Assembly: GCA_951812955.1 (NCBI GenBank)
Contig: OX638340.1
Coordinates: 2,112,001 to 2,176,000 of the forward strand
Length of the DNA: 64,000 nt
Origin: an uncultured Gemmatimonadota bacterium
Lineage (GTDB): Bacteria; JAAXHH01
Reading direction: 5' to 3'
Shown here: piece by piece, positions 7,340 through 23,124 of the stretch
Layout of the letters: each line of letters opens with the position of its first letter
Numbering within the stretch: the stretch's first letter is position 1
The notes under the pieces: generated by a model
What the model saw: only the letters and a program-made list of their open reading frames with translations
The model's database searches: none
Told to the model about the DNA's origin: nothing
Position numbers and translations under genes: made by a program

Positions 7340-8824
7340 TTATTTCTGCAGCATGCCCGCGGCGCTGACGACGAAGGCCGATAGAAGCACCACCGTGGAG
7401 ACGACCCCGAGGACGAGCATGGCGGGCCGGGTCCGGTAGGCCGGAGGCAATTTGAAATTCAGGTAGACCGCCGCGAAGCAGACCAGGCCCACGCCCATGT
7501 TGGTCGCCAGAAGGGCAACGATCTGCGTGATCAGGTCGAAGGTGATGTCGCTCCAGATCGCCACGGAGGATGAGATGAAGAACCAGATCACGATGAAAGC
7601 CTGCAGCTTGCGGTAGGAATAAGACGCGAAACGCGGCCAGACTGCCGTGAGGAACTCGTGGGCGAACCGGGTCAAGGCTTCCGGTATGGTAGCCAGCGTA
7701 CCCCAGAGAGCCGCGAGAATGGCCACGTAGTACACCGGGATAAGGGCGGCGTGGATCTGCGCCCAGATGGAAGACTGTCTCGTAAGTAGGTCCCACGCGT
7801 TGCCGGGAAGGATCGTCTGCCGCGGGTAAAGCACGACCGCGCCCGCGATCATGAAGGCGGCCGTGACGATGAAGAGCACGAGCGCCCCCATGGATACGTC
7901 CCACTTGAGGGGTGAGAGCAGTACGCGCATGCGCTTCACCTGGGATGGATCCTCCCTAAGGTAGTTGATCTTCAGCGTGCCGTCAATCCGGTCGCCAAGC
8001 CGCTTCATTACCGGGTTTCCAGTCAGGCCCCAGCCCCGGTGAGCTACCCAGCCGGAATAGGCCAGGTAAGTACTCAGCGTGCCCCCCACGTAGCCGAACA
8101 CCGTGACCAGGTTCAGGAAGTAATCGTTCCGCGCGGCCGACGGCGCCCAGTCGGGGGCTGCGGGCAGGTTCCCGATGGACAGCGTTCCGAAGAGGATGGC
8201 GCCGATACTCGGCCAGACGATGATCGTGGCCACGATCGTGCCGGTCACCAGGATGCCGCAGATGATGATCTGCTGCTTTTCGAGGATGTCGTAGGAGGTA
8301 AGCAGGCTCAGGCCGATGGCCAGTCCCAGGAACACCGTGGTAACCAGGTTCTCCCAGAACGTATCCGTCGGGCCCACAGGCAGCGAATCCGTGAAGATAT
8401 GGACAACGAGATTCCCGCAGGGCTTGGCGACTGCCGTCAAGGCGATGCTCAGGGCGAGCAGTTCGATGGTCAACAGCGTCAGGATGAACCAGCCCCTGGG
8501 ACCGGGCAACTTCGCCAGCATGCGGCCGAAAGGTTGGCCGCTCACCGCCGTAAACCGCCCCAGCAGGTACGTCACCGCAACGCCCTTGACGAGCACGCTC
8601 AGCAGGATCAGCCAAAGCAGGCCGTATTCGGCCCAGGCGCCAACGCCGGTGACCAGAATGGTCTCCCCCGCGCCTACCGCCATGGACGCCACCAGCGCGG
8701 CGGGCCCGAAGAAGCCCAGCATATGCTTGAACTTCTTCCAGGACCACGGTTCCGTGTAGACGCCGGTGGGCTCAGGTATGGACAGTATTTCGGAGGATCC
8801 GGCCGATTCTTCGTCTTTGTTCAT
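7340..8824 (-). CDS. Polytopic membrane transporter, Nramp-family-like (divalent metal transporter-like). The assignment is tentative.
   Basis: About 11-12 predicted TM segments. The N-terminal region FGPAALVASMAVGAGETILVTGVGAWAEYGLLWLILL...LLGRFTAVSG resembles the Nramp core but has GAGE in place of DPGN. The track ORF begins at a TTG at 8848; the first ATG is at 8824. Confidence 0.45.
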   Translation of the reverse strand: MNKDEESAGSSEILSIPEPTGVYTEPWSWKKFKHMLGFFGPAALVASMAVGAGETILVTGVGAWAEYGLLWLILLSVLVKGVAVTYLLGRFTAVSGQPFGRMLAKLPGPRGWFILTLLTIELLALSIALTAVAKPCGNLVVHIFTDSLPVGPTDTFWENLVTTVFLGLAIGLSLLTSYDILEKQQIIICGILVTGTIVATIIVWPSIGAILFGTLSIGNLPAAPDWAPSAARNDYFLNLVTVFGYVGGTLSTYLAYSGWVAHRGWGLTGNPVMKRLGDRIDGTLKINYLREDPSQVKRMRVLLSPLKWDVSMGALVLFIVTAAFMIAGAVVLYPRQTILPGNAWDLLTRQSSIWAQIHAALIPVYYVAILAALWGTLATIPEALTRFAHEFLTAVWPRFASYSYRKLQAFIVIWFFISSSVAIWSDITFDLITQIVALLATNMGVGLVCFAAVYLNFKLPPAYRTRPAMLVLGVVSTVVLLSAFVVSAAGMLQK

Positions 8825-9091
8825 GGAAATGAAATGATAAGAACACAAAGCCGTTACATCAAGTGTTTATACTGGCACTGGATTTTCCGACCGGCCGGAA
8901 CGCACAACAGGTTATGAAGACCGCCATGCGGAACCTGCATTACCCGTACATTCCGGTTCATAAATCCCTGTTTCGACTGGACTGCTCGTTGTATAATCAT
9001 CCCATAACCACTACGTACTGAGACTCGGATAGCCCCATGTCAATCCGGGTGTTTTCAGATCCTGATCCGGCTGAAGAAAGGAAGCCAATTG

Positions 9092-10654
9092 ATGGACGCC
9101 CTTCTTAAATCGAAATCCAATGAAGCCGATCGGTCGTCAGCCAGCTCCGGAGACCGGGAAGCCCTGACCCGTAGATCCTTTCTCAAGCAGGCGGCTTTCG
9201 TGGCCGCGGCGATGGCCGCCCCCTTTCCCGTGCTGGCGGATCCCTACGCACCGCAGTCCAGGAGCGCTGCGGCGGCCGGCGTGCGTCCGGTCCGCGTCTC
9301 CGGCCGCGTGCTTTCAGGCAGGGCGGGTCTGGGCGGCGTCGCGGTAACGGACGGACTGTCCGTCACCGCCACCGACTCGGAAGGTCGATTCGAGCTCGTG
9401 TCCAACACGATTCAGTCCTTCGTATCGATCTCAACGCCCAACGGCTACGCGTTGGAGCAGAATCCAAGCGGCATTGCCTCGTTCTACCGGCCGATCATGC
9501 CGGACGACTCCGGAGAGATGGCTGTCAGCTTCGATCTCGCGGAACTGGACGGATCGGACGAACGCCACGGATTTCTGGTGCTCGCCGACCCGCAGACCCA
9601 GGACGCCTACGAAATGGGACTCTTCCACGCGGAGACCGTGCCGGACGTCAAGGAGACCTCCGCCGCGCTGGCCGGCCGCCGGCTCTTCGGCGTGGGCTGC
9701 GGAGACATCATGTTCGACGATCTGACCCTGTACCCCGAGTACGAGCGGGGCGTGCTTCGCATGGGCATGCCCTTCTTCCAGGTCGTCGGCAACCATGACC
9801 TGGACTTCGGGCCGACCGACGACGGATCCGTCCGCACGTTCTGCCGACACTTCGGCCCCAACTACTATTCCTTCGATCGCGGAGAAATCCACTACATCGT
9901 GCTGGACAACGTGTTCTGGCACGGAGAAGGATACATCGGGTACGTGACCGACGACCAGCTCAACTGGGTAACCCAGGACCTCGCCCTGGTCGAGACCGGC
10001 AGGACCGTGGTGGTCTTCAATCATATTCCCCAGTATACCACCCGTCATATCAGAACCGGGGTCGACAGCCCGTCCATTTCGTCCACGACTGTGAACCGCG
10101 AGCGTATGTACCGCCTCCTGGAACCCTACAAGACCCACGTGTTCTCCGGCCACGTGCACGAGCACGAGCATATCTTCGAGGGCGGGATACACGAGATCGT
10201 TCAGGGCACGGTCTGTGGCGCCTGGTGGAGCGGCCCCATCTGCTGGGACGGCACGCCCAACGGTTATGGCGTCTACGAGGTCGACGGATCGGATATCCGC
10301 TGGCGGTACAAGTCCACGGGCTTGCCCGAAGACCACCAGATGCGGGTCTACCTCCGGGGCAGCGATCCCGGAGCGCCGGACGAGATCGTTGCCAATGTCT
10401 GGGACTGGGATCCCGAATGGCGCGTCGTCTGGTACGAAGACGGCATGCGGAGAGGCGCCATGGCCAGACGTCCCGGCACCGATCCGCTGGCGGAATCCCT
10501 GCACAGAGGGGCCGACCTGCCCGAACGCCGGCCCTGGGTGGAACCGGTGATCACGAATCACCTGTTCTACGCGCCGGTTTCGACCCAGGCCCGGAAGGTG
10601 GTGGTCGAAGCGACGGACCGCTTTGGCCGGACTTATGCATCCGAACTGATCTGA
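9092..10654 (+). CDS. Tat-exported calcineurin-like metallophosphoesterase.
   Basis: Twin-arginine signal TRRSFLKQAAFVAAAMAAPFPVLA. Metallophosphoesterase motifs GDIMFDD, GNHD and GHVHEHEH. The ATG at 9092 is preceded by GAAAGGAAG; the track start is a TTG three nt upstream. Confidence 0.8.
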   Translation: MDALLKSKSNEADRSSASSGDREALTRRSFLKQAAFVAAAMAAPFPVLADPYAPQSRSAAAAGVRPVRVSGRVLSGRAGLGGVAVTDGLSVTATDSEGRFELVSNTIQSFVSISTPNGYALEQNPSGIASFYRPIMPDDSGEMAVSFDLAELDGSDERHGFLVLADPQTQDAYEMGLFHAETVPDVKETSAALAGRRLFGVGCGDIMFDDLTLYPEYERGVLRMGMPFFQVVGNHDLDFGPTDDGSVRTFCRHFGPNYYSFDRGEIHYIVLDNVFWHGEGYIGYVTDDQLNWVTQDLALVETGRTVVVFNHIPQYTTRHIRTGVDSPSISSTTVNRERMYRLLEPYKTHVFSGHVHEHEHIFEGGIHEIVQGTVCGAWWSGPICWDGTPNGYGVYEVDGSDIRWRYKSTGLPEDHQMRVYLRGSDPGAPDEIVANVWDWDPEWRVVWYEDGMRRGAMARRPGTDPLAESLHRGADLPERRPWVEPVITNHLFYAPVSTQARKVVVEATDRFGRTYASELI

Positions 10655-10722
10655 GGCCGGTCCAAGACCGACTCCGAGGCATCCGAACTGATCTGAGGCC
10701 GGTCCAAGACCGACTCCGAGGC
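10639..10722. repeat. Perfect 42-bp tandem duplication (2 copies plus a partial third) spanning the stop codon of the metallophosphoesterase gene.
   Basis: atccgaactgatctgaggccggtccaagaccgactccgaggc occurs twice in tandem, followed by gtccgaaact. The first copy contains the TGA at 10652..10654. Confidence 0.9.
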
Positions 10723-10812
10723 GTCCGAAACTCACGGTGAAAACGAAGAACGGGTCATGAAGAGTCAACCATTCCCGGCAGAACGACACCGCCGGATAAA
10801 AGGGAGAACAAC

Positions 10813-11772
10813 ATGGCGAACGACGGCCTGATAAGCCCCTTCGACATCGATGACGAGGGATACTTCTGGCTCAAGGGCAATCTGCATTCCCACACGACCA
10901 ATTCCGACGGGAAGCCGTCACCCCAGGAACGGCTGGACGGGTACGTCAACCAGGGATACGATTTCCTGTGTATTTCCGATCACTACACCATAACCAGGAT
11001 CGACACGGTCAGCGCGCCGGACGATTTCGTCCTGGTGCAGGGTGCGGAGATCCATCCTGAGAACCCCTTTGGCGGCCAGACCCACCACTTCCTGGCCTAC
11101 AACATCGACGAAGACATGGATTCGAAGCGCATGCCGCCGCAGCACGTCATAGACGAGGTGCGCCGGCAGGGCGGCTCGATCTGGCTCGCCCATCCCCACT
11201 GGAGTTCGGTCAACATCCTCCGGGATACCCTGCCCCTTCACGGCCTGGCAGGCATCGAAGTCTTCAACACCACTTGCCGGTGCGCCGGACGCGGCGAGTC
11301 CTCCGTACACTGGGACGACTGGATGGACCTGCTGGGAAGGCCGATTCCAGCGCTCTCCAACGACGACTCCCACGCCCTCGAGTCGGAAAACCGGGATACC
11401 TACGGGGGCTGGAACATGGTGAAGGTCAAAGAACGCACGGCGAAGGCGATCATCGACGCGCTGGAAAGAGGCTGTGCGTACGTCAGTTCCGGACCCGAGA
11501 TCCGGGACATCCAGTTGCACCGCGTCGACGATATGGGTGATGGGAAACAGGTCGTGGAGGCGAGTATCCGGTGTTCAGAGGCGCAGAGCATTCTCGCCGT
11601 GTTCGATTCCCATGGTACGGAGTTTCGGGACCGGACAGGCCATGGAAAAACCTTCGAAGATGCCACGTTTACGCTGCGGCCCAATGTACGGTGGGTAAGA
11701 TTCGAGATCATCGCCCCGGACGGCACGAAGGCCTGGTCGAATCCCATGGATCTGGCGAAAGTCGGTCGGTGA
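10813..11772 (+). CDS. PHP-domain (polymerase/histidinol-phosphatase-like) metal-dependent phosphoesterase.
   Basis: GNLHSHTTNSDG N-terminal PHP motif, further His/Asp clusters (ISDHY, AHPHW, NDDSHA) and a size of 319 aa. Confidence 0.8.
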   Translation: MANDGLISPFDIDDEGYFWLKGNLHSHTTNSDGKPSPQERLDGYVNQGYDFLCISDHYTITRIDTVSAPDDFVLVQGAEIHPENPFGGQTHHFLAYNIDEDMDSKRMPPQHVIDEVRRQGGSIWLAHPHWSSVNILRDTLPLHGLAGIEVFNTTCRCAGRGESSVHWDDWMDLLGRPIPALSNDDSHALESENRDTYGGWNMVKVKERTAKAIIDALERGCAYVSSGPEIRDIQLHRVDDMGDGKQVVEASIRCSEAQSILAVFDSHGTEFRDRTGHGKTFEDATFTLRPNVRWVRFEIIAPDGTKAWSNPMDLAKVGR

Positions 11773-11897
11773 TACCGCCGCGGACCGCTACAGTGGGCGT
11801 TCAGAACTCGGAGGTCGAATCCCATGGATCTGGCGAAAGTCGGTCGGTGATACCGCCGCGGACCGGCACGGTGGGCGTTCAGGACTCGGAGACTGCC
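11722..11897. repeat. 88-bp tandem duplication (2 copies, 3 mismatches) spanning the stop codon of the PHP-domain gene.
   Basis: ggtcgaatcccatggatctggcgaaagtcggtcggtgataccgccgcggaccg...ggcgttcag.actcggag is repeated with an 88-bp period. Copy 1 contains the TGA at 11770..11772. The duplication is mirrored in the spurious ORFs 11571..11972 and 11400..12041, which show repeated peptides. Confidence 0.9.
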
Positions 11898-11946: not shown

Positions 11947-13581
11947 CTACGGAAGGTCCTGCCGAAGCATGACCTCGGTGAGAACGACGGCCGATGTCGA
12001 CGCATTGTCATCGTAGTAGGTAACGAAGCGCTTCGTCTCATGGGCGTCGTAGGGGGCGAGGTTCTGCGCCCACCGGAAGCCGATGGTCTGGAACATCAGC
12101 CGTGCCCTGACTACGATTCCCTGCACACCCGGCCGCGCGGCGACGCGGTACTGGACCCTGTCGCTTCCGGCCTGGAAATCCCCATCTTCCCGCGCCGCTC
12201 CATGCACCATGATTGCGGCTTCGGCGCTCTCCTTGTCGAACCCCTCGGGCAGCAGGCGGTTGTCCTTGGCGTAGGTGACGGCCGATAGCAGGCCCGTGGT
12301 AACTCCACCTGACCCGTCCGCGATGATCGGCTCATAAATCTGTACCTGGCCGGGGTCGTCGATCACTTGGTAATGCGGCTCGAAGCGGCTACCGTCCGCG
12401 TCGTTGTCGTTACCCTTAATGCTCCCGTCGGGAAGCATGGCACCGGATTCAAACACCACGTCCCCGCCGTCATCACGAACCTCGAGGTGGATCCAGGCCC
12501 TTCGCGACGGATAGGCCGTCGGCAGCTTGTGGCCCGCCAGGTTCGACACTTTAAGATCGATAACGTATTGGTTCTCCGCGCGGGAGACTGCCAGCACCTC
12601 CAATTGAGCTGTCGCAGTCTGCAAGTGCTCCCGCGTCGCCTCGGCGGCGCGCTGAAGATCGCTTGACGGCGCGGTGACCAGCAGCTCGTCCCGATACCTG
12701 TCCAGCAAACGCAACATAAACTCGTTGCCGCCGCGAAACACATGGCGCGAGACATTCTCCCTGTACTCCCCGAGCACCGAGGAGATGGGGGCCGATGAGG
12801 TCTCCGGCATGTGGCAGGACTGGCAGCTTTCGGTCGCCGAAAAGGCGCTGTGTCGCCATTCCAGGTAGGGCGTCTGCTCCGGGAAACGGGCTGTTTCTCG
12901 CCCTTCCGCGTCCAAACTTGTCGTGAACAGGGTGTGGCAGGTCGCGCACAGTTCCGATTCCTGCAGATGCGCGGATGAATCCGGTGTGAAACCGGTGGCG
13001 GACTGCATGATCCGGCGCCGCCCGTCGTCCACGTCGAAGGGCCCGAAGATCTGAGGGTCGGTGCCTGTGCTTGAACGGATCACGAAGTTCCCATCGAAAC
13101 TCGATTCCTCGCCGAAATTGTCGGGCCGGATCTGATGGCAGGTGGTGCAGGACACCCCATCGAGGGCCAACATGGCGCGCTCGTCGCCCTGCCGCGCGGC
13201 TTCCAGGTGTGCGAACACTTCTCCCAGTCCGCCGTTTTCCTTCGCCAGCACACGCGCCATGGGCATATGGCAGGTCGAGCAGGTGTCCTCGATCTCTGCC
13301 CGGGCGTCCGGATGGTCGGTCACTTCCCGGCGTACGGATGCCTGCCAGTAGGGATCCCGCGCCGAATGCGCCATGACGGAACCGCGCCATACGTGCCCGA
13401 TGGAGACGTCCGTTCCGTCCGGACCGGTTATATTGCTGTGACAGGCGATGCACTGGTCCGAAGTGACGAACGTGCTTTGATCCCCGGACTGCGCCTCGAC
13501 CGATGCGCACGCGAGCCAGGCGAAGGCGAGCGGCGCCAGCGTGAGGCACGTCAGCAACCGCCCCGTGTAGTTACCAGCCAT
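11947..13581 (-). CDS. Pentaheme c-type cytochrome (five CXXCH motifs) with a ~280-aa heme-free C-terminal domain; probable lipoprotein or secreted protein.
   Basis: CIACH, CSTCH, CTTCH, CATCH and CQSCH all fall in the first ~260 residues. Signal peptide with LAC lipobox-like cleavage region. The start overlaps the upstream gene by 11 nt, so the two are likely co-transcribed. Confidence 0.85.
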   Translation of the reverse strand: MAGNYTGRLLTCLTLAPLAFAWLACASVEAQSGDQSTFVTSDQCIACHSNITGPDGTDVSIGHVWRGSVMAHSARDPYWQASVRREVTDHPDARAEIEDTCSTCHMPMARVLAKENGGLGEVFAHLEAARQGDERAMLALDGVSCTTCHQIRPDNFGEESSFDGNFVIRSSTGTDPQIFGPFDVDDGRRRIMQSATGFTPDSSAHLQESELCATCHTLFTTSLDAEGRETARFPEQTPYLEWRHSAFSATESCQSCHMPETSSAPISSVLGEYRENVSRHVFRGGNEFMLRLLDRYRDELLVTAPSSDLQRAAEATREHLQTATAQLEVLAVSRAENQYVIDLKVSNLAGHKLPTAYPSRRAWIHLEVRDDGGDVVFESGAMLPDGSIKGNDNDADGSRFEPHYQVIDDPGQVQIYEPIIADGSGGVTTGLLSAVTYAKDNRLLPEGFDKESAEAAIMVHGAAREDGDFQAGSDRVQYRVAARPGVQGIVVRARLMFQTIGFRWAQNLAPYDAHETKRFVTYYDDNASTSAVVLTEVMLRQDLP

Positions 13582-14692
13582 CGCGGAAACCTCCGTCGAA
13601 CCAGTCCCACAACAGGTACATGACGATCTGCGGTTTACGGCTTAACTTCCTGGCGACCGGAACCCGCAACCCCACGTTGAGCAGAATGTGCTGGCGCGTG
13701 TTGAGCGAGACCTGCAGTTGAGGCACGAGGTCCATCGCGACACCGGAACCGGAATCAAGTTCGCGCCAAGCCAGGACCTCGACCATGGGACTCCAGGCCC
13801 GGCCGAACTCGCCATCCGTGAAGGTCCTGCCGATCAGCGCCCTTATGGCTACTTCATCCTCCACGGAGCCGCTCACGGCGAATTCACCCAGCGCCTGGGC
13901 CTGGAAAAAGGCGTCTCCGGGCATAAGCTGTACGATGGCCAGGTAAGGCTCCAGTTTCGTGGAGCCCGTACCGAAGCCGTTTTCTTCGTCGCCGGATGGC
14001 AAGATGACTTCGCCGCCTATACTGAAGGCATGACCACGCCCCAAGTCGTGGTACAGGGCATACTTGTAGCCAAGCGCCAGGTCCCCGAAGCCCAGGTTGG
14101 TCCCGTCGTCCCGCTCAGAATCGCGCCTGCCGAACGGGACCTTCACTTCGATCATGCCCCGGGGGCCGAACCGCTTCTCGTATACCGGCTCGATGATAAC
14201 GGCCTTGCTGTCGTCCGTGTCCAGCGTCAGATTGAATACCGTCTCGTCTTCGGGAAAGGCTTTCTCGGTAAACAGGGGCTTTGGAACGTTGAATTCGCCG
14301 CGTGGCCAGTTCTTGTTCGTGCAGAAGGTGCGGACATTGCCGAGGATAGCGTAGATTTCCTCGTCCGTGAGGGCATCCCCGAATGCGGGCATCATGCGGT
14401 CGAAGGCCCGCACCGGTCCCCCTTCATGGATCACGGCGTGCCAGTCGGGGTCGGGTTCGCGGGAAGCGAATTCGCAGTCCGTAAAGTCCGGAAGTTCCAG
14501 TGCAAACCCGCGCTCTTCGAGCGGACTTCCTCTTCCGTCCGATCCGTGACAGGCCGCGCAGGCCTGTTCATAGAGCTTTGCTCCGTCGAGCTTCGCCCCG
14601 ACGAGCTGGTCGGCGAAGGTGGAACGCTCCACAAACAGACCGTAAAGACTAAACAGTACCACTAAGCATTTGCAGCTATATCGCATATCCAC
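13571..14692 (-). CDS. Monoheme class-I cytochrome c domain fused to a ~250-aa C-terminal beta-rich domain (putative outer-membrane beta-barrel).
   Basis: Signal peptide, then CAACHG with a downstream Met ligand candidate (RMMPAF). The C-terminal half has alternating-hydrophobicity strands (AFSIGGEVIL, LEPYLAIVQL, FFQAQALGEFAV) and an aromatic-rich C-terminus ...MYLLWDWFDGGFRDGW. Confidence 0.7.
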   Translation of the reverse strand: MDMRYSCKCLVVLFSLYGLFVERSTFADQLVGAKLDGAKLYEQACAACHGSDGRGSPLEERGFALELPDFTDCEFASREPDPDWHAVIHEGGPVRAFDRMMPAFGDALTDEEIYAILGNVRTFCTNKNWPRGEFNVPKPLFTEKAFPEDETVFNLTLDTDDSKAVIIEPVYEKRFGPRGMIEVKVPFGRRDSERDDGTNLGFGDLALGYKYALYHDLGRGHAFSIGGEVILPSGDEENGFGTGSTKLEPYLAIVQLMPGDAFFQAQALGEFAVSGSVEDEVAIRALIGRTFTDGEFGRAWSPMVEVLAWRELDSGSGVAMDLVPQLQVSLNTRQHILLNVGLRVPVARKLSRKPQIVMYLLWDWFDGGFRDGW

Positions 14693-14858
14693 GCCGGATC
14701 CCGCGCCATCGGGAGCCGCACTGGCCGGACTGGCCGGACTACGCCTGGCACGCTACGAACCGACCGGCCGGAAGGGCTTTCCGCGCTACCGTTGACGCGT
14801 TGATTGTAACTGTGTGTTAAATTAGACGGTTTTAGGAGAGGTTTCCTGCGATTCGAAT

Positions 14859-15308
14859 TCAGACCACCCGCTCGATCCGAACGCGCTTCACCCCTTCCCT
14901 GCGTATGCGGTAACACACTGCGATGAAATCATCGGCGTCGCCAACCATCCGGGCGAAGAGATTCACCGCGACGGGGCCGTCCGGCATATTTGGCCGGCCG
15001 TCCCTGCCGTAGAACCAGCACAGTTCGGTGATCCCGTCCAGCCACCCGTGCATGCGTCCTGGCTCCAGCCTGAAGTAGCAAATGTCACCGGGCAAGGTGC
15101 GGCTTGTCAGGTTCTCGGGCGGGATGACGATGTCCTTAGACAGGAAGTAAGCGATCTCGCTGCCCGAGTACACGGCGTGGATGCCCTCTTCCTCCAGGGG
15201 CAGCGCGTCCCAGACAGCCTGGCAGGTCTTCGGCGCCTCGTCCTCAAGCAACTCGGCAACTACCGAAACGCCTTCTTCGACAAAGGTCAAACGGATCCTA
15301 CGGGCCAT
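14859..15308 (-). CDS. Cyclophilin-like fold protein (DUF3830-like); hypothetical.
   Basis: 149 aa. MARRIRLTF..GVSVVAELLEDEAPKTCQAVWDALP matches the N-terminal pattern of DUF3830/cyclophilin-like proteins as I recall it. No catalytic assignment is possible. Confidence 0.4.
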   Translation of the reverse strand: MARRIRLTFVEEGVSVVAELLEDEAPKTCQAVWDALPLEEEGIHAVYSGSEIAYFLSKDIVIPPENLTSRTLPGDICYFRLEPGRMHGWLDGITELCWFYGRDGRPNMPDGPVAVNLFARMVGDADDFIAVCYRIRREGVKRVRIERVV

Positions 15309-15361
15309 GGCTTACTTTCAGATTCGCTTGCGTGGTCTTGATATAGCCAATCGAAATTGAA

Positions 15362-16171
15362 CTACAACTTCATGAATATCCCGATGTCCCAGGCCGACGC
15401 ATCCAGCAGATTGTGCGCACCCGTGTATTTCGTCACGCCCGCGGTAATCCCCGCGTCGGACGTGATGTAGAAATTGAGCTCCGGACCGAATGACACGTAC
15501 TGCTGGTCGTTTCGGGTCCACTCGCCATCCGACTTTCCCAGGGCTTTCACACCGCGAATCCAGCCGGAGAACCCGACTCGCTCGCCAGCCATGAAACCCG
15601 CTTCGAGAGCGTACCTCAGTTCGTCGGAGTAATCGCTTTCACGATTATTGAAGCCGATTTCGGCTTTCAGGTAGCCCGGTGTCGGCCACAGGGAACGACC
15701 GACCTGGAGCGAGAATAACTGGTTGAATTCACCATCGCCGGTGAACAGGCCGATTTCCTGGTCGGTATAGGAATCTCCCAGCGGCAATCCCGCCATGACC
15801 TGAATGCTCACGACCGTGGGCCCGCTGGTGAGCAACCCAATCCTGGCGCCAAGCTCCCAGTCCCCCGTACCCGTCTTGGTGTCGGACCCGTGCCTGTCTT
15901 CACTGATACGCTGATAAAAGGGAATGTACCCTACAAGTGTCAACCGGTCTACAAGGCCGAATTCACCATACAGGCTGGTCGTATATCTGCTCAGATCCGT
16001 TATGTCTACCCTGTCTCCGGACGGCTCGAAATACGAATTGCTCTTAATAAACTGCTCGTTCAGCTTGAAATAGCCCTTGCCCTGGGGATGGGTCCATCCA
16101 CCGGCGAATACCGTGGATACCTGGAGGATGAACCCCGCGAGCAAGGCGCCGGCATAGATGAGTTTGGACAT
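15362..16171 (-). CDS. Outer-membrane beta-barrel protein (paralog A), ~250 aa mature.
   Basis: Signal peptide MSKLIYAGALLAGFILQVSTVFA. Amphipathic beta-strand periodicity is seen throughout, and the protein ends ...WDIGIFMKL. It is about 55% identical to the next gene. Confidence 0.55.
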   Translation of the reverse strand: MSKLIYAGALLAGFILQVSTVFAGGWTHPQGKGYFKLNEQFIKSNSYFEPSGDRVDITDLSRYTTSLYGEFGLVDRLTLVGYIPFYQRISEDRHGSDTKTGTGDWELGARIGLLTSGPTVVSIQVMAGLPLGDSYTDQEIGLFTGDGEFNQLFSLQVGRSLWPTPGYLKAEIGFNNRESDYSDELRYALEAGFMAGERVGFSGWIRGVKALGKSDGEWTRNDQQYVSFGPELNFYITSDAGITAGVTKYTGAHNLLDASAWDIGIFMKL

Positions 16172-16210
16172 GGCACACTCCCCTTAACGGATGCCGAACA
16201 GCAATATCTT

Positions 16211-17035
16211 CTACAGTTTCAGAAACAGCCCGAATTCCCAGGCTGGCGCGTCCAGCATGCTATGAGCCCGGGTGAATTTCGACATGCTGGCGGTAATTCC
16301 CGCATTAGGCGTAACATAGAAATCGACCTGGGGGCCGAAGGACAGGTACTCGATTTCGTAACGCGAACGGAATTCATCATCCGCTTTGCCGAGGACTTCG
16401 ATCCCGCGGAGCCAGACCGATACGCCCAACCTTTCAGCGACCGTGTAACCGGCTTCGAGACTATACCGAAGTTCATCGGAATAGTCGTCAATAGGATCGT
16501 CGTCGCCCTGTCTATTGTTATACCCGATTTCGGCTTTCAGGTAGCCGGGTACCGGGTAGAGTGAATGGCCCACCTGGAGCGAGAAGTGCTGGTTGAATTC
16601 GCCGTCGCCGGTCCAGAGGACGACACCCTGGTCTGATTCTCCCAACGGCAATCCCGCCAGGGCTTGCAGGCTGACCACCGTGGGGCCCTGTGCCAGAATA
16701 CCGATCCTGACCCCTATGTCCCAGTCGCCAATGCCTGAAGTCGAATCGAAGCCTTCGGCATCCACGCTGAACTTCGAATAAAACGGCATGTAGCCCACAA
16801 GAGTCACCCGGTCGAGCAAGCCGAATTCACCGTAAAGGCTCGTCGTATTGCCGCTTACGGTCGGTATCTCGGTTTTGGACCCGGTTGCCAGGAACAGTGA
16901 TTCGGCGCGCACGAACTGCTGGCTTAGTTTAAAGTACCCCTTGCCCTTCGGCTGAGTCCATCCGCCTGCGTGGGCAAGAGTTGAATAGCAGATCAACGCG
17001 GCTGTCATCAATGTGGCTGCTATGAACCTGTTCAC
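16211..17035 (-). CDS. Outer-membrane beta-barrel protein (paralog B); tandem duplicate of 15362..16171.
   Basis: Signal peptide MNRFIAATLMTAALICYSTLAHA. Shared blocks GGWTxPxGKGYFKL, TTSLYGEFGL.DR.TLVGY.PFY, GDGEFNQ.FSLQVG.SL.P.PGYLKAEIG.NNR and a C-terminal ...W.FG.F.KL. Confidence 0.55.
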   Translation of the reverse strand: MNRFIAATLMTAALICYSTLAHAGGWTQPKGKGYFKLSQQFVRAESLFLATGSKTEIPTVSGNTTSLYGEFGLLDRVTLVGYMPFYSKFSVDAEGFDSTSGIGDWDIGVRIGILAQGPTVVSLQALAGLPLGESDQGVVLWTGDGEFNQHFSLQVGHSLYPVPGYLKAEIGYNNRQGDDDPIDDYSDELRYSLEAGYTVAERLGVSVWLRGIEVLGKADDEFRSRYEIEYLSFGPQVDFYVTPNAGITASMSKFTRAHSMLDAPAWEFGLFLKL

Positions 17036-17061
17036 CTCATGCTCCTTTGTGATTCAGTTGC

Positions 17062-19452
17062 TCAAAATGATCCACTGCCGAGTGGCATATTCACAAACGC
17101 GCAATGAAGAATGACATTGCTGTAGGAGTCAATCGTCTCGCCCGCACGGGGTGTGAAGGTACTTGTAAAACTGCGGCTGCCTGTGACGTTCCCAAAATGC
17201 CTGGCGCCAGTAGGAGCGGGACCGCTACGCCAATTGATAGAGGCACTGGTGTATAGAAACAAATGTGCAGCAATCCCGCCTCCAGTGTTCATTCCGGTTA
17301 TGGTCAGTTTGAGTCGACCGCCGGAGACTTCTTCGAAGGTCACGGACCCGGCGGTGCTCGGATAGCTGCTCGTACCGGAAATTGAAGCAGTACGGCTTCT
17401 CAACATCGGTGGAGGCGGCGGAGGCTCGGTCACCGTCAACGACGCCGTACCGGACTTGCCGTCCACCTCTGCTGTTATCGTCGTGGATCCGGCATTCCGT
17501 GCCCTGGCCAGTCCCGTGGTGCTTATGGTCGCAACCGACGTGTTGCTGCTCGTCCACGTAAAAGTCTTCCCGGTAATCTCCATGTTGTTCGAGTCATAGG
17601 CTGTCGCAGTGAATCGTTGCGTCTCGCCTTCTTCGATCGAACGGGAAGATGGAGACACGGCAACCCGGTCAACTACGGGGGGTGGAGGCGGAGGTTCCGT
17701 CACCCTTAACGTCGCTGTGCCGGATACGCCGTCGACGGTTGCCGAGATCGTCGTGGAACCTGCATCCAGGCCCCTCGCCAACCCAGTTACACTTATCGTG
17801 GCTACCGTCTCATCAGAACTTGACCACGTAAACGTCTTGCCCGTTATCTCGGAATTGTCCGACGTGTGGGCGGTGGCAGAAAACCGCCGGGTCTCACCCT
17901 CCTCGATTGACGCTGAGGAGGGACTCACTGTCACGGTTGCGACCATCGGTGGTGGTGGCGGAGGTGGTTCGGTCACTGTGAGCGTCGCCGTGCCGGATAC
18001 TCCATCAGTCGTCGCCGTGATCATCGCTTCGCCCATTCCGACACCAGTCGCCAGGCCGTTCGCGTCGACCGTCGCCACCATGTCATCCGAACTCGACCAT
18101 GTAAACTCCACGTCCGGGATTTCCATCCCGTCCGACGTCATTGCCATCGCCGCGAACTGCTGCGTCGCGCCTACCTCGATCGTCGCTTCAAGTGGACTCA
18201 CTGACACCGTCGATACCACCGGCTCGGGTGGCGGTGGTTCGGTCACTGTGAGCGTCGCCGTGCCGGATACTTCGTCAGTCGTCGCCGTGATCATCGTTTC
18301 GCCCGTTCCGACACCGGTCGCCAGGCCATTCGCGTCGACCGTCGCAACCATCTCGTCAGAACTCGACCACGTAAACTCCGCGTCCGGGATTTCCATCCCG
18401 TCCGACGTCATTGCCATCGCCGCGAACTGCTGCGTCGCGCCTTCTTCGATCGTGGCTTCCGATGGACTCACTGTCACGGTTGCTACAACTGGCTCTACTG
18501 GCTCGGGTGGAGGCGGTTCGGTCACCGTCAGTGTCGCCATGCCGGATACACTGTCCGCGGTAGCCGTGATCATCGCCTCGCCTGCTCCTACACCACTCGC
18601 CAGGCCGTTCGCGTCGACCGTCGCCACCATCTCGTCAGAACTCGACCACGTAATCTCCGCGTCCGGGATATCCATCTCGTCCGATGTCGAAGCCATCGCC
18701 GCGAACTGCTGCGTCGCGCCTACCTCGATCATCGCTTCAGGTGGACTCACCGACACAGTCGATACCACCGGATCGGGAGGCGGAAGTTCGGCTACGTTAA
18801 TGGTAACCGGCGAACTCGCTATACCGTCCGCCGTGGCGCGGACCGTTGCCGTACCCGCTGCGACTGCCGTGGCAACGCCGGCCGATGTAATGGTCACTTT
18901 GCTGGTATCGCTGCTCGCCCATGAGAAACTGACACCTTCGCGAATGGCGCCTCCAGACGTCCGGGCCGTCGCCGTGAAGGTCACCATTTCCCCAACCATC
19001 AGCTCCTGGGTCGAGGAAGGAGAGATCGTGACCCGGGCCACGGCGGCCTGGGTGACCGTGATCGTCACCGGTTCGCTCACGATGCCGTTTCCCGTCGCTC
19101 TGATGGTCGCCGTACCAACACTTACCGCGGTTGCCCGTCCACCGGCACTGATGGTTACTACGGCGGTATTACTGCTGGACCAGGTATAATTGACACCGCT
19201 TATTACGGCGCCGTCGGAAGCCTTGGCGGTCGCAGCCAACTGTTGTGTTCTGCCCACTTCCAGAGACACCATGTTCGGACTCACTTCGATGCGAGAGACC
19301 GTCGGTGCGGGGGGAGGTGTCGGCGTCGGTGTGGGTGTTGTCGGCTCGGCCGGTCTGGTCGGGGAGGAGTCCCCACCGCCGCACCCGACATTCAGCAATG
19401 CGCTTGAAACCGCTATCATGATGAGACCGGTAGCAATCGACCTGAATGACAT
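17062..19452 (-). CDS. Large surface lipoprotein with about 8 bacterial Ig-like (Big_2) domains, Pro-rich linkers and a distinct ~120-aa C-terminal domain.
   Basis: The lipoprotein-type leader ends ...ALLNVGCGGG. The module V.VSP...V..G.T.QL.A.....G..I........W.SS...VATV...G...AV..G.A.I.A...G is repeated and separated by TEPPPPEP linkers. Three central copies are nearly identical at the DNA level. Confidence 0.75.
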   Translation of the reverse strand: MSFRSIATGLIMIAVSSALLNVGCGGGDSSPTRPAEPTTPTPTPTPPPAPTVSRIEVSPNMVSLEVGRTQQLAATAKASDGAVISGVNYTWSSSNTAVVTISAGGRATAVSVGTATIRATGNGIVSEPVTITVTQAAVARVTISPSSTQELMVGEMVTFTATARTSGGAIREGVSFSWASSDTSKVTITSAGVATAVAAGTATVRATADGIASSPVTINVAELPPPDPVVSTVSVSPPEAMIEVGATQQFAAMASTSDEMDIPDAEITWSSSDEMVATVDANGLASGVGAGEAMITATADSVSGMATLTVTEPPPPEPVEPVVATVTVSPSEATIEEGATQQFAAMAMTSDGMEIPDAEFTWSSSDEMVATVDANGLATGVGTGETMITATTDEVSGTATLTVTEPPPPEPVVSTVSVSPLEATIEVGATQQFAAMAMTSDGMEIPDVEFTWSSSDDMVATVDANGLATGVGMGEAMITATTDGVSGTATLTVTEPPPPPPPMVATVTVSPSSASIEEGETRRFSATAHTSDNSEITGKTFTWSSSDETVATISVTGLARGLDAGSTTISATVDGVSGTATLRVTEPPPPPPVVDRVAVSPSSRSIEEGETQRFTATAYDSNNMEITGKTFTWTSSNTSVATISTTGLARARNAGSTTITAEVDGKSGTASLTVTEPPPPPPMLRSRTASISGTSSYPSTAGSVTFEEVSGGRLKLTITGMNTGGGIAAHLFLYTSASINWRSGPAPTGARHFGNVTGSRSFTSTFTPRAGETIDSYSNVILHCAFVNMPLGSGSF

Positions 19453-19578: not shown

Positions 19579-22500
19579 TCACTTCCCGTTCCCGTTCCAG
19601 CGTCCTCTGCCGTTGCGTTTCCTTCCATTCATTTCCACCTGTTTCCATCCGCTTTCACCGCTGTGTACGGGAGCACCGGCCAGTCGGACGCGCTTCGCGT
19701 CGATCGATTCGCGCAGCGTTTTCAGCAACTCATCCGAGGGCCTGACGCGGAAATCACTCCCTGCCCTGACGCCGATCTCACTCTGATCTGCTGTAGACAC
19801 TTCTAGCACTACGTCGCAATTCCCCGGGTAAGTCTCCAGCACGTGTTTGATCGATACGAGGTTCTCATCCGCTACCTGTTCGTGCTCCATGGTCACCACG
19901 ACGGACCGCGCCAGCCGGTCCCGCGCATCCGTCAGTGAAATGATCTCGGAAGCGATGACCTTGTTGTCCTCTTCTTTTTTCGACAGGTGTCCATGTACGA
20001 GGACCAGCGAGTCGATCGTCACGAGTTCGCGATGCAGTGCGTACGGTTCCGAAAAGACGAGCACCTCACCCGAACCGGAGAAGTCTTCGAGCGTTACGAA
20101 GGCCATGGTCTTGCCGTTTCGATCCACGATGGGCTTGATTTCGGTCACGATACCACCGACCACGACGGTGTCCTGCCGGCCGTTTGCGTGGTCGAGGCGC
20201 CGCATTTCCGCCGTCGTAAAGGCCCGAATGTCTTCCTCGTATTCCTTCAGCGGATGCCCCGTCACATAAAATCCCAGCAGTTCCTTCTCGAGGCCCAGTT
20301 CCTGGCTTGCCGGCCAACGGGGGACGAGCGGCAGCACCGGCTTGTGTACTTCCAGATTCGCACCCGCTCCCATCCCGTCGAGGTCGAAAAGGGAGGTCTG
20401 TCCCTTCTCCCTGTCGTTCTGACGGGTCTGCGCCCCTTCAATGACCGTGTCGAGCACTTCCATGAGCTGTGCCCGGTGCCCCTCGAGGCTGTCGCAGGCG
20501 CCGGCCTGGATCAGGCTTTCGAGCACCCGCTTGTTTACCAGCCGCAGATCGATGTGCTCGCAAAGTCCGTACACATCTTCGAAGCGTCCATGTTCCTTCC
20601 TCGCCTCGACGATGGATTCCACCGCGGCCTGGCCCACGTTCTTGATCGCACAGAGCCCGAATCGGATGGAATCTCCTTCGACGACGAAGGTCTTGTCGCT
20701 TCTGTTGACATCGGGCGGCAGCACGTCGATGCCCATTTTCCTGCATTCGTTGATCAACACGACGATTTCTTCGGTATTCGACATCGTGTTGGACAGCAGT
20801 GCGGCCATGAACTGTACCGGGTAGTGCACCTTCAGGTAAGCTTCCTGGAAGGCGAGGACGGCATAGCCCGCCGAATGGCTCTTGTTGAACGCGTAACCGC
20901 CGAAGTATTCGATCAATCCAAACACTTCCTCCGCGATATCCTTCTCGATGCCGTTCTCAACCGCGCCATCGACGAAATTCCGACGTTCTTCGGCCATGAC
21001 TTCGGGCTGCTTCTTGGCCATGGCCTTCCTAAGGAAATCGGCCCGTCCCAGGGTGTAGCCCGCCATGTCGCGGGCGATCTGCATCGCCTGCTCCTGGTAG
21101 ACGATGAGCCCGAAGGTTTCCTTGAGTGCCGTCTCCATCACGGCGTGGTGATACGTAACCTTCTTGCGGCCGTGCTTCCGGTCGATGTAGTCGTCCACGA
21201 CACCGCCGTTCAGGGGTCCCGGCCTGCAGAGCGCGTTCATGGCGATCAGGTCATCGACGCCGTCCGGCCGCAGGCGACGGAGGAATTCGTGCAGCCAGCC
21301 GCTATGGAACTGGAAAATCCCGGTCGTTTCTCCCCGCCGGAACAGGTCGAGGGTCTTCGGATCATCCAGGGGGATATCATCCAGCTCGATCTCGTCGCCC
21401 GTCGTGTCTTTGATCATCGCGATGGCGTCCTGGATGACAGAAAGGTTCTGCAGTCCCAGGAAGTCCATCTTCGGCAGCCCGATGTCCTCCATGAGCTCGC
21501 CGGGATACTGGGTAACGATCGTATCCTTGTTACTGGGCTTGTACAGCGGCACGTAGTCGGTCAGTTCGCCCGGCGTGATCACGACGCCGGCCGCGTGGAC
21601 CGAGGCGTGGCGCGCAAGACCTTCGAGGGTCTTCGCGTACTGGATCAACTGGCCGTCCGTACCGCCGCCGTCGGCCATCTGGCGAAGTTCCGGGACCTGG
21701 TCTATGGCCCGGTCGAGGGTGATCTTCAATTCGGTCGGAACCAGCTTGGCCACGCGATCCACGTCGCCGTAGGACATGCCGAGGACGCGGCCCACGTCAC
21801 GGATCGCCGCCTTCGCGCCCATGGTGCCGAAGGTGATGATCTGGGCTACGCTGTTCTTGCCGTATTTCTCCACCACGTAGTTGATGACCTTGTCCCGTTC
21901 ACGGTCCGCAAGGTCGATGTCGATATCGGGCATGCTGACGCGCTCGGGATTCAGGAAGCGTTCGAAAAGCAGACCATAGCTGATGGGGTCGATATTCGTG
22001 ATGCCCAGCACGTAGGCGACCATGCATCCGAGGCCCGATCCCCTCGTCATGAGCGGGATACCCTGCTCCGCGGCAAAACGGGCGATATCTTCGACGATGA
22101 GGAAGTAGCTGGGATAGCCCATCTGGTTGATTACCCCGAGTTCGTATTCGAGGCGGGCCTTCAACTCGGGGGTGACGGTGTCGTAACGCGCCTCCATCCC
22201 GTCGAAAGACAGCTTGCGCAGGTACGCGTCCGCACTGTCATAGTCCTCCGGCAACGGGAAGTGGGGAAACTTGAAATTGCCCATTTCCATTTCAAATTCA
22301 ATGGACTCGGCGATGGATACGGTGTTTGCCAGGGCGCCGGAAACATGGCCGAACAACTGGCCCATCTCGTCCGCGTTCTTGAAGTAGAGCGAATCCGTGG
22401 CAAACCTGAGCCGCTTGGGGTCGTTCAGTTCCTTCCCGGTCTGGATGCAGACCAGTACGTCCTGGGCGGGCGCGTCGTCCCGTCTGAGGTAGTGGGCGTC

Positions 22501-23124
22501 GTTGGTCGCGACGATGGGGAGGTCGAACTCCCGGGAGAAATCGATCATCGCGTTGTTGATGGGCTTGTCGAAATCCAGTCCGTGATCCTGAATCTCCAGG
22601 TAGAAGTTGGATCCGAAGATCTCCTTGAGCTGCCGGCACTTCGTCCGCGCCTGGTCTATCTGGCCGTCCACCACCAGGTTGGCGAGCGGTCCCTTGGCGC
22701 AGGCGGACAGGGCGACCAGCCCCTCGCTGTGCTTTTCCAGCAATTCCATGTCCACGCGCGGCTTGTAGTAGAAACCCTCGAGATATCCCGCGGAGGTGAG
22801 CTTCATCAGGTTCCGGTAACCGGTCGCGTTCTGCGCTAGCACGACGAAGTGGGTCGTCTGGTCGGCGCGCTCGCCGCCCCGTACCGGACGTTTTTCCTTC
22901 CGGCTGCCCGGCGCCAGATACAACTCGCAGCCGATGATCGGCGTCAGTCCCGCGGCCGTGACGGTCTTGTAGAATTCCACGGCGCCGAACATGTTCCCAT
23001 GATCGGTCATGGCTATGGCGGGCATGCCAAAGGCTTTGGCGGTATCGGCGAGATCCTCGATTCGGCTTGCGCCGTCGAGCAGGCTGTAGTGGGTATGGTT
23101 GTGCAGATGAACGAACGAGGACAC
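19579..23124 (-). CDS. dnaE: DNA polymerase III alpha subunit
   Basis: 1181 aa. The PHP-domain N-terminus MSSFVHLHNHTHYSLLDGASRIEDL, the pol III alpha core and the OB-fold region are canonical DnaE. Confidence 0.97.
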   Translation of the reverse strand: MSSFVHLHNHTHYSLLDGASRIEDLADTAKAFGMPAIAMTDHGNMFGAVEFYKTVTAAGLTPIIGCELYLAPGSRKEKRPVRGGERADQTTHFVVLAQNATGYRNLMKLTSAGYLEGFYYKPRVDMELLEKHSEGLVALSACAKGPLANLVVDGQIDQARTKCRQLKEIFGSNFYLEIQDHGLDFDKPINNAMIDFSREFDLPIVATNDAHYLRRDDAPAQDVLVCIQTGKELNDPKRLRFATDSLYFKNADEMGQLFGHVSGALANTVSIAESIEFEMEMGNFKFPHFPLPEDYDSADAYLRKLSFDGMEARYDTVTPELKARLEYELGVINQMGYPSYFLIVEDIARFAAEQGIPLMTRGSGLGCMVAYVLGITNIDPISYGLLFERFLNPERVSMPDIDIDLADRERDKVINYVVEKYGKNSVAQIITFGTMGAKAAIRDVGRVLGMSYGDVDRVAKLVPTELKITLDRAIDQVPELRQMADGGGTDGQLIQYAKTLEGLARHASVHAAGVVITPGELTDYVPLYKPSNKDTIVTQYPGELMEDIGLPKMDFLGLQNLSVIQDAIAMIKDTTGDEIELDDIPLDDPKTLDLFRRGETTGIFQFHSGWLHEFLRRLRPDGVDDLIAMNALCRPGPLNGGVVDDYIDRKHGRKKVTYHHAVMETALKETFGLIVYQEQAMQIARDMAGYTLGRADFLRKAMAKKQPEVMAEERRNFVDGAVENGIEKDIAEEVFGLIEYFGGYAFNKSHSAGYAVLAFQEAYLKVHYPVQFMAALLSNTMSNTEEIVVLINECRKMGIDVLPPDVNRSDKTFVVEGDSIRFGLCAIKNVGQAAVESIVEARKEHGRFEDVYGLCEHIDLRLVNKRVLESLIQAGACDSLEGHRAQLMEVLDTVIEGAQTRQNDREKGQTSLFDLDGMGAGANLEVHKPVLPLVPRWPASQELGLEKELLGFYVTGHPLKEYEEDIRAFTTAEMRRLDHANGRQDTVVVGGIVTEIKPIVDRNGKTMAFVTLEDFSGSGEVLVFSEPYALHRELVTIDSLVLVHGHLSKKEEDNKVIASEIISLTDARDRLARSVVVTMEHEQVADENLVSIKHVLETYPGNCDVVLEVSTADQSEIGVRAGSDFRVRPSDELLKTLRESIDAKRVRLAGAPVHSGESGWKQVEMNGRKRNGRGRWNGNGK

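Follow-up and report, generated by a model that had tools for sequence, protein, structure and literature searches.

A 64,000-nucleotide window of contig OX638340.1 (positions 2,112,001 to 2,176,000 of the forward strand; assembly GCA_951812955.1, an uncultured Gemmatimonadota bacterium) contains a block of six minus-strand genes, designated here A to F in the direction of transcription. The last two, encoding a cytochrome c fused to an outer-membrane beta-barrel (E) and a pentaheme cytochrome (F), make up a widespread two-gene unit which is strongly co-conserved across hundreds of species from several phyla. The region as a whole holds two envelope modules, unrelated to each other and adjacent only in this lineage of Gemmatimonadota. 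Each domain belongs to a known fold family, while the fusion of a class-I cytochrome c with a COG4313 barrel and its near-obligate pairing with a cytochrome of the c552/ExtKL fold appear to be uncharacterised: full-text literature searches found no description of either the fusion or its pairing with a cytochrome of the PHC family.

Conservation and distribution of the E-F pair

The two genes have the following positions in the window:

E: 13571-14692, minus strand; signal peptide, class-I monoheme cytochrome c domain and a predicted 12-stranded outer-membrane beta-barrel
F: 11947-13581, minus strand; signal peptide, alpha-helical pentaheme domain and an immunoglobulin (Ig)-like/beta-sandwich C-terminal domain

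They overlap by 11 nt, and the start codon of F falls within the final codons of E (GATGGCTGGTAA). A species-level pattern scan, built from the alignment of E homologs and using one genome per species, produced at least 599 matches, with 556 stretches confirmed by tblastn. The best 80 of these 556 E loci, each taken with 8 kb of flank, were compared using tblastn with ten proteins of the window. F was located directly downstream of E on the same strand in 57 of the 80 loci and divergently, upstream of E, in another 12. The overlap ATGGCTGGTA between the E stop and the F start, within the common stretch GATGGCTGGTA, was found in at least 22 loci. Since this overlap forces the sequence via the invariant C-terminal DGW of E, it accounts for the conserved 'MAG' N-terminus of F. 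Judging from the sequence, the arrangement indicates translational coupling of the two genes.

Clustering of the open reading frames (ORFs) from the 80 loci did not reveal any further neighbour family near E-F in more than seven loci, and in four annotated E-F contexts the neighbours were unrelated to each other. The small associations that were observed were lineage-specific and included DUF3300 proteins (7 loci), an SSF symporter (6 loci) and a pyrroloquinoline quinone (PQQ) dehydrogenase within 8 kb (5 loci). The former correspond to a single ORF cluster downstream of E in gammaproteobacterial loci with a divergent F (L019, L040, L043, L047, L056, L058 and L072), whose representative from L040 was identified as a DUF3300 protein (E 1.5e-51). 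The PQQ-dependent dehydrogenase cluster (representative L044) was found in L021, L028, L029, L040 and L044, and the window itself encodes such an enzyme at 31154-33166 (minus strand), approximately 17 kb from E-F. PQQ-dependent dehydrogenases use cytochrome c acceptors; the association with E-F is weak and may be due to chance.

The 80 loci belonged to Gemmatimonadota, Gammaproteobacteria, Acidobacteriota (Thermoanaerobaculia and Vicinamibacterales), Balneolaceae, including the isolate Rhodohalobacter sp. 8-1 (L068), Rhodothermales and Alphaproteobacteria, i.e., mostly to lineages of aerobic heterotrophs from sponges, soils and sediments. The closest loci, with 75-97% protein identity, came from metagenome-assembled genomes labelled as Gemmatimonadetes/Gemmatimonadota, some of them mislabelled as Latescibacterota, with isolate names including APA_bin_41 and SB0665_bin_8; going by these names, the Gemmatimonadota lineage of the window may be associated with sponges. 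More than 6000 homologs of E were found, with 50-60% identity across the phyla, and its relatives in the protein collection formed thousands of clusters at 90% identity. A search among 1.84 billion representatives of 50%-identity clusters recovered 206 clusters of the E family at E <= 1e-30. The full-length representatives (357-415 aa) aligned through both domains over nearly the whole query, which makes the fused cytochrome-barrel architecture the norm of the family.

In four loci of Candidatus Palauibacter (L037, L038, L065 and L074) the place of F directly after E was occupied by a gene for a 255-aa protein (for example, L038:9082-9864), whose start overlaps the DGW stop of E in the same arrangement as in F. 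This protein contains a conserved motif, H...C-D-I-H-G-W-M (H...C-x2-H-x2-M), which resembles a type-1 copper site. Its identification as a cupredoxin was not accepted, since it has the motif only: CarboxypepD_reg was the single Pfam domain recognised and amicyanin was matched in the PDB at E 0.46. E may take an alternative redox partner in Palauibacter, and, if the copper assignment is correct, the acceptance of different periplasmic redox partners supports a role of E as an electron-transfer node.

Domains and predicted folds of E and F

E has a single CXXCH motif at residue 45, with the Cytochrome_CBB3 and Cytochrom_C matches falling within residues 35-116, while residues 174-291 matched Phenol_MetA_deg (PF13557) above the Pfam gathering score (33.5 bits against a cut-off of 22). 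The protein is divided into a cytochrome c domain (approximately residues 30-125), a conserved linker and a barrel (approximately residues 150-373). An alignment of 18 sequences contained about 100 invariant positions, among them C45xxCH49, M100/M101, C73, C124, the linker motif WPRGEFNxPxPxFTEKAFPEDE and the C-terminal YLLWDWFDGGFxDGW. M100/M101 would be expected to form the Met ligand region of the heme. The AlphaFold model showed a confident 12-stranded barrel at residues 150-362, with the following structural matches (scores after the name):

FapF: 22.0
COG4313 channel Pput2725 (4rl8): 21.2
KdgM: 19.4
NanC: 18.2
autotransporter and intimin barrels: 15.6-17.9
PcoB: 13.6

In comparison with Pput2725, the C-terminal domain of E is a 12-stranded transmembrane beta-barrel in its predicted fold and, together with the Pfam score, this places it in the COG4313/Phenol_MetA_deg family at the level of the model. 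With only 12 strands, such a barrel is too narrow either to sheathe a multiheme cytochrome or to house a class-I cytochrome domain of approximately 90 residues.

F contains five CXXCH motifs, at residues 44, 101, 145, 212 and 253, followed by a heme-free C-terminal half; inspection of its N-terminus revealed no lipobox. Its homologs, more than 8000 in number and none with a specific name, share 50-60% identity between the phyla. In an alignment of 75 sequences about 100 columns were invariant, with motifs such as CSTCHMPM, NLAGHKLPTAYPSRR, GNDND, QVQIYE and KDNRLLPxGFD, and the only invariant cysteines were the ten belonging to the CXXCH motifs. In one homolog (P0227, 696 aa) a Tll0287-like domain (PF11845) is fused to the protein, while the Thermoanaerobaculia locus L084 carries a separate Tll0287-like gene (L084:7181-7771), divergent from E.

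The PHC pentaheme family has been proposed for c552, ExtKL and the cytochromes of cable bacteria (PMC11976967). F has its five CXXCH motifs in an N-terminal helical domain, an Ig-like C-terminal domain and a fold similarity to the structure of c552 from Thermochromatium tepidum (PDB 5ze8), by which it is placed, on the level of predicted fold, in the c552/ExtKL (PHC) family. Profile searches matched F with 5ze8 at E 5e-4 and with ExtKL at E 0.01, and its score with the NCBIfam ExtKL model NF040886 was 32.1 bits at a cut-off of 250. An affiliation with MtrC/OmcA was not adopted: PF22113, the pentaheme domain of MtrC/MtrF, was matched by Pfam only in part (38.9 bits, cut-off 30), and no fold support was found, the Foldseek match to OmcA (E 0.02, probability 0.21) being not significant.

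ExtKL, now MccSep, is a periplasmic polysulfide reductase with an active site made up of heme 2, its ligand Cys239 and the adjoining selenocysteine Sec325, which the Ig-like domain carries on a loop (bioRxiv 10.1101/2025.11.18.688581). In a residue-level alignment the position of Sec325 was occupied in F by Tyr357, which is kept in at least 90% of the F sequences. No motif of F is better conserved than this loop, H351-K-L-P-T-A-Y357-P-S-R-R361, which includes two invariant Arg, and no conserved non-heme Cys capable of replacing the heme-2 ligand Cys239 was present in the 75 sequences. With Tyr at the Sec325 position and no conserved Cys as heme ligand, F is not a MccSep, and its identification as a polysulfide/selenite reductase of this type was discarded, both catalytic residues being missing and the NF040886 score being far under the cut-off. 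By analogy, the conserved loop suggests an active site of different chemistry, possibly acting on an anionic substrate. F would be soluble in the periplasm, similarly to both characterised members of the family, of which MccSep has a demonstrated periplasmic location and the c552 of T. tepidum is a soluble protein.

In regard to E and F the original prediction was mostly correct: the monoheme cytochrome c with a barrel domain was recovered in the Pfam matches and in the 12-stranded model, and the pentaheme protein with a heme-free C-terminal domain has all five CXXCH motifs within the first 260 residues. The possibility that the C-terminal domain of E is soluble, named in advance as an argument against the prediction, was not borne out, since the AlphaFold model and its fold matches predict a barrel.

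The A-D genes and the surroundings of the block

The remaining genes of the block and its flanks are as follows:

A: 17062-19452, minus strand; 796 aa, 7 Big_2 stretches (Pfam E 4.6e-92)
B: 16211-17035, minus strand; 274 aa, signal peptide, paralog of C
C: 15362-16171, minus strand; 269 aa, signal peptide, paralog of B
D: 14859-15308, minus strand; DUF3830/cyclophilin-like (Pfam E 3.4e-30), without signal peptide
dnaE: 19579-23124, minus strand; flank of the block
CehA/McbA-type (PHP) hydrolase and twin-arginine (Tat)-signal metallophosphoesterase: plus strand, convergent with the block, below F

The signal peptide of A ends in LLNVG directly before C, i.e., in a non-canonical lipobox with N at -3, and its seven Big_2 repeats are joined by Pro-rich linkers; the protein, which contains no CXXCH, is a probable surface lipoprotein. 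Its C-terminal part of approximately 110 aa is collinear with the DM13 domain (PF10517) of distant homologs, and the BLASTP alignment with the Big_2-DM13 protein of L086 extended through residues 685-792, including the HCxxxN motif. In A itself DM13 was not called by Pfam even at E up to 10, while it was called in L086 (E 1e-15) and L087 (E 1.7e-13).

B and C, whose mature forms have about 250 residues each, are 56% identical to each other and had no Pfam or NCBIfam matches of their own. They belong to a small family, for which 158 hits were obtained, the majority in this lineage; of 21 family members compared with Pfam, 7, remoter ones with about 40% identity, matched PF13557 (best E 1.4e-7). 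The alignment of the B/C family with the E family was weak (hhalign E 0.008, probability 4.8%), so that a direct homology of the two barrels, suggestive at best, was not accepted. Going by their remoter relatives, B and C are most likely small outer-membrane barrels of the COG4313/Phenol_MetA_deg type. In two distant contigs (two-gene units at L086:6035-7861 and L087:4312-6126) a B-like gene directly followed a gene for a Big_2 + DM13 protein of approximately 310 aa, with no cytochrome within 7 kb. This Big_2-DM13 and barrel pair is the likely ancestor of the A-B/C module in the window. D has no hydrophobic segment at the N-terminus and several acidic residues among the first 25, and looks cytoplasmic.

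The whole neighbourhood, comprising dnaE, A-F, the CehA-like gene, the phosphoesterase and an Nramp-like gene, was kept only in the close relatives L001-L008 and L010, the only loci with D; all other loci of the 80 had just E, in most cases together with F, and lacked A-D. In L009, L011 and L012 E-F is 74-78% identical, i.e., as near as in some of the syntenic relatives, yet A-D is missing, and therefore E-F moves independently of A-D. A-B(-C), a Big_2/DM13-like lipoprotein with a barrel, is a separate conserved module, and D is a lineage-specific neighbour outside both conserved modules.

Most of the gene identities in the original prediction were reproduced. Its six minus-strand genes corresponded to ORFs with exactly the same coordinates, the 796-aa Big_2-repeat lipoprotein and the DUF3830 cyclophilin-like protein were recovered, the former with the non-canonical lipobox described above, and the 166-bp gap between D and E as well as the flanking dnaE and two convergent phosphoesterase genes were found as described. 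B and C were confirmed as paralogs, while for their barrel nature the evidence came only through the remoter PF13557-matching members. The claim that all six products have export signals failed for D.

A promoter/terminator scan of the block found sites no more numerous than in shuffled sequence, and the Rfam scan of the window gave zero matches. Each of the two convergent genes below F has a tandem duplication at its 3' end: a 78-bp unit repeated 2.0 times (94% match; 11735-11891), covering the last 38 nt or so of the CehA-like gene together with the spacer on the side of F, and a 42-bp unit repeated 2.2 times (98% match; 10637-10729) at the end of the metallophosphoesterase gene. The 502-aa multi-pass membrane protein at 7340-8848 (minus strand), syntenic with the block in the close relatives, was labelled as Nramp-like from its sequence and had no Pfam match at E <= 0.01. 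Further away, three tandem paralogous MacB_PCD/FtsX-type ABC permeases of approximately 803 aa are encoded on the plus strand at 47160-49571, 50175-52589 and 52699-55110.

Possible working of E-F and its relation to known systems

We consider it fairly probable that E and F constitute a self-contained redox pair of the outer membrane and periplasm, combining a barrel as anchor or channel, a tethered cytochrome c and F as the probably catalytic component. E would be inserted in the outer membrane by its 12-stranded COG4313/FapF-like barrel, and its class-I (His/Met) cytochrome c domain, which precedes the barrel at the N-terminus, would most likely lie at the periplasmic face and exchange electrons with the soluble pentaheme F. 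The role of the narrow barrel may be to anchor the protein in the membrane, to let one particular small substrate or product pass (an ion, an oxyanion or another small molecule), or both, and presumably not to sheathe a heme wire. The conservation, unusual for envelope proteins, argues for a specific and important reaction.

Several observations weigh against this scheme. F was absent near E in 11 of the 80 loci, 10 of which had ample flank, and the homologs of both proteins are named in the databases only as 'c-type cytochrome' or 'hypothetical protein', with no named homolog among them. Residues 22-134 of E were modelled with a predicted local distance difference test score (pLDDT) below 50 and the linker (116-149) also with low confidence, so that neither the topology nor a plug in the lumen can be read from the model. 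The conservation of E, far above the usual for outer-membrane barrels, could mean a role more specific than anchoring. Finally, the analogy suggesting catalysis by F comes from one preprint and a local, low-scoring alignment.

The original prediction had combined all six genes into a single machine for extracellular electron transfer, with A at the surface, B, C and E as porins and F as the periplasmic cytochrome, which we now regard as highly improbable. The genes do lie on the same strand with short gaps and in synteny in nine related genomes, the set of parts is similar to that of ExtHIJKL, with a lipoprotein, an outer-membrane barrel and a pentaheme of the PHC family, and the C-terminus of A is collinear with a domain entitled in Pfam 'Electron transfer DM13'. 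However, since the synteny extends to dnaE, Nramp and the phosphoesterases, it reflects close relatedness and not function; E-F was found without A-D in L009, L011 and L012, and the distant B homologs accompany Big_2-DM13 proteins with no cytochromes nearby. D, moreover, looks cytoplasmic and is separated from E by 166 bp, and the redox role of DM13 is, to our knowledge, a computational proposal only. The six genes as one conserved cluster were therefore rejected by the tblastn synteny over the 80 loci and by the neighbour ORF clustering. From the predicted cytochrome-barrel module the E-F unit proved to be real and strongly conserved, while A-D, next to E-F only in L001-L008 and L010, fell away; the same applies to the co-conservation of barrels with cytochromes, in view of the B-like barrels pairing elsewhere with Big_2-DM13 proteins. 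Nor do the barrels look like electron-conduit porins: that of E, with 12 strands in the model, and most likely those of B and C are small COG4313-type channels and not porin sheaths of 20-28 strands. Extracellular electron transfer by E-F alone is conceivable but unlikely.

In this form, E-F would act as a compact Cyc2-like conduit unrelated to Cyc2, where the E heme is accessible, through or at the barrel, to an extracellular donor or acceptor such as Fe(II), Mn(II) or Cu(I); we judge this unlikely, and equally doubtful is the electron path that it implies, from the E heme to the periplasmic F (or to a cupredoxin in Palauibacter) and further into the respiratory chain. It would be in line with the presence of a monoheme cytochrome and an outer-membrane barrel in one polypeptide, as in Cyc2, and with a dedicated periplasmic partner, be it a cytochrome with several hemes or a putative blue-copper protein, a pattern which parallels the Acidithiobacillus rus operon, where Cyc2 passes electrons to Cyc1 and rusticyanin. 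F also shares the fold family with ExtKL, which originates from a Geobacter cluster listed among putative electron conduits (PMC6148476), but according to later work ExtKL reduces polysulfide in the periplasm and is not a wire. Besides, the cytochrome domain of about 90 residues does not fit into a 12-stranded barrel, so that the heme would sit at one end of a narrow pore, the genes include none for a cytochrome exposed at the surface, F being without a lipobox, the carriers are mostly aerobic heterotrophs and not known iron oxidisers, and the type-1 copper assignment of the Palauibacter protein comes from the motif only. An autotransporter-like E, in which the linker threads the 12-stranded barrel and the cytochrome c domain is exposed outside the cell to react with external substrates, with F supplying or removing electrons only indirectly at the periplasmic end, reproduces the order of classical autotransporters (N-terminal 'passenger', conserved linker and 12-stranded barrel). 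It is very unlikely, however, since the best structural matches, FapF and the COG4313 channels, have N-terminal segments which plug the lumen from the periplasm, and the linker was modelled at low confidence. Maturation of cytochrome c by Ccm occurs in the periplasm, and a folded, heme-loaded cytochrome c is a poor substrate for such a pore.

The self-contained redox pair is, thus, the interpretation that we prefer. A broader and rather speculative version of it is that E-F represents a widespread minimal redox device, in which a channel-fused cytochrome c passes electrons or a redox-active substrate between the outside and a pentaheme enzyme; that such a device would be a functional analogue of Cyc2 or ExtHIJKL with an independent origin is likewise a tentative idea, with the chances against it. 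If true, hundreds of aerobic heterotroph lineages of Gemmatimonadota, Acidobacteriota, Gammaproteobacteria, Balneolales and Rhodothermales in sponges, soils and sediments would possess an unrecognised extracellular or envelope-level redox capacity. If the E-F substrate were identified, the few redox modules recorded for the outer membrane could be joined by a new one, and the orphan c552 family could be given a function. It could also correct genome-mining pipelines, which would either miss E-F or over-call it as a porin-cytochrome conduit.

Among the known systems, MtrCAB and Pcc also have cytochrome genes beside outer-membrane barrel genes, but their large porin of 20-28 strands, deca- or octaheme periplasmic cytochrome and surface lipoprotein cytochrome have no counterparts in the E-F block. 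Particularly, no lipoprotein multiheme cytochrome is encoded, since A, the sole lipoprotein candidate, has no CXXCH and F has no lipobox. The statement in the original prediction that the genes match neither MtrCAB, Pcc nor Cyc2 was supported. In the extHIJKL cluster of Geobacter sulfurreducens the pentaheme gene adjoins a gene for an outer-membrane beta-barrel with a lipoprotein gene in the neighbourhood, as is the case with E-F, and its ExtKL/MccSep shares the pentaheme-plus-Ig fold family with F. In contrast to MccSep with its Sec325 and Cys239, F has Tyr357 and no conserved non-heme Cys; ExtI is a barrel of approximately 21 strands without heme, whereas E combines a 12-strand barrel with a fused cytochrome c, and in place of the rhodanese ExtH there is the Big_2 protein A, which is not co-conserved with E-F. 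Neither a rhodanese nor a large barrel was detected in the six-gene block with Pfam and NCBIfam, and E-F comes with no ExtH, ExtI or ExtJ. E-F is, therefore, a member of neither MtrCAB/Pcc nor ExtHIJKL.

The barrel of E is only 11-13% identical to the solved structures of the COG4313 channel Pput2725 (4rl8) and FapF (5o65), and its conservation across phyla goes far beyond what is common among the COG4313 channels. Cyc2 resembles E in that one polypeptide combines a single heme c at the N-terminus with a barrel of the outer membrane at the C-terminus and is encoded beside a periplasmic redox partner. In Cyc2 the heme is bound by a short segment and the barrel is larger, with approximately 16-18 strands, whereas E possesses a complete class-I cytochrome c domain and 12 strands, which makes the likeness architectural only. 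No sequence relationship between E and Cyc2 was detected in the libraries searched, which hold no Cyc2 model or structure, and the taxonomic and ecological distribution of E is different. The c552 of T. tepidum (PDB 5ze8), itself without assigned function, is only 14-21% identical to F, which is longer by approximately 110-160 residues, has extra C-terminal elements and is paired near-obligately with the gene of the cytochrome-barrel fusion.

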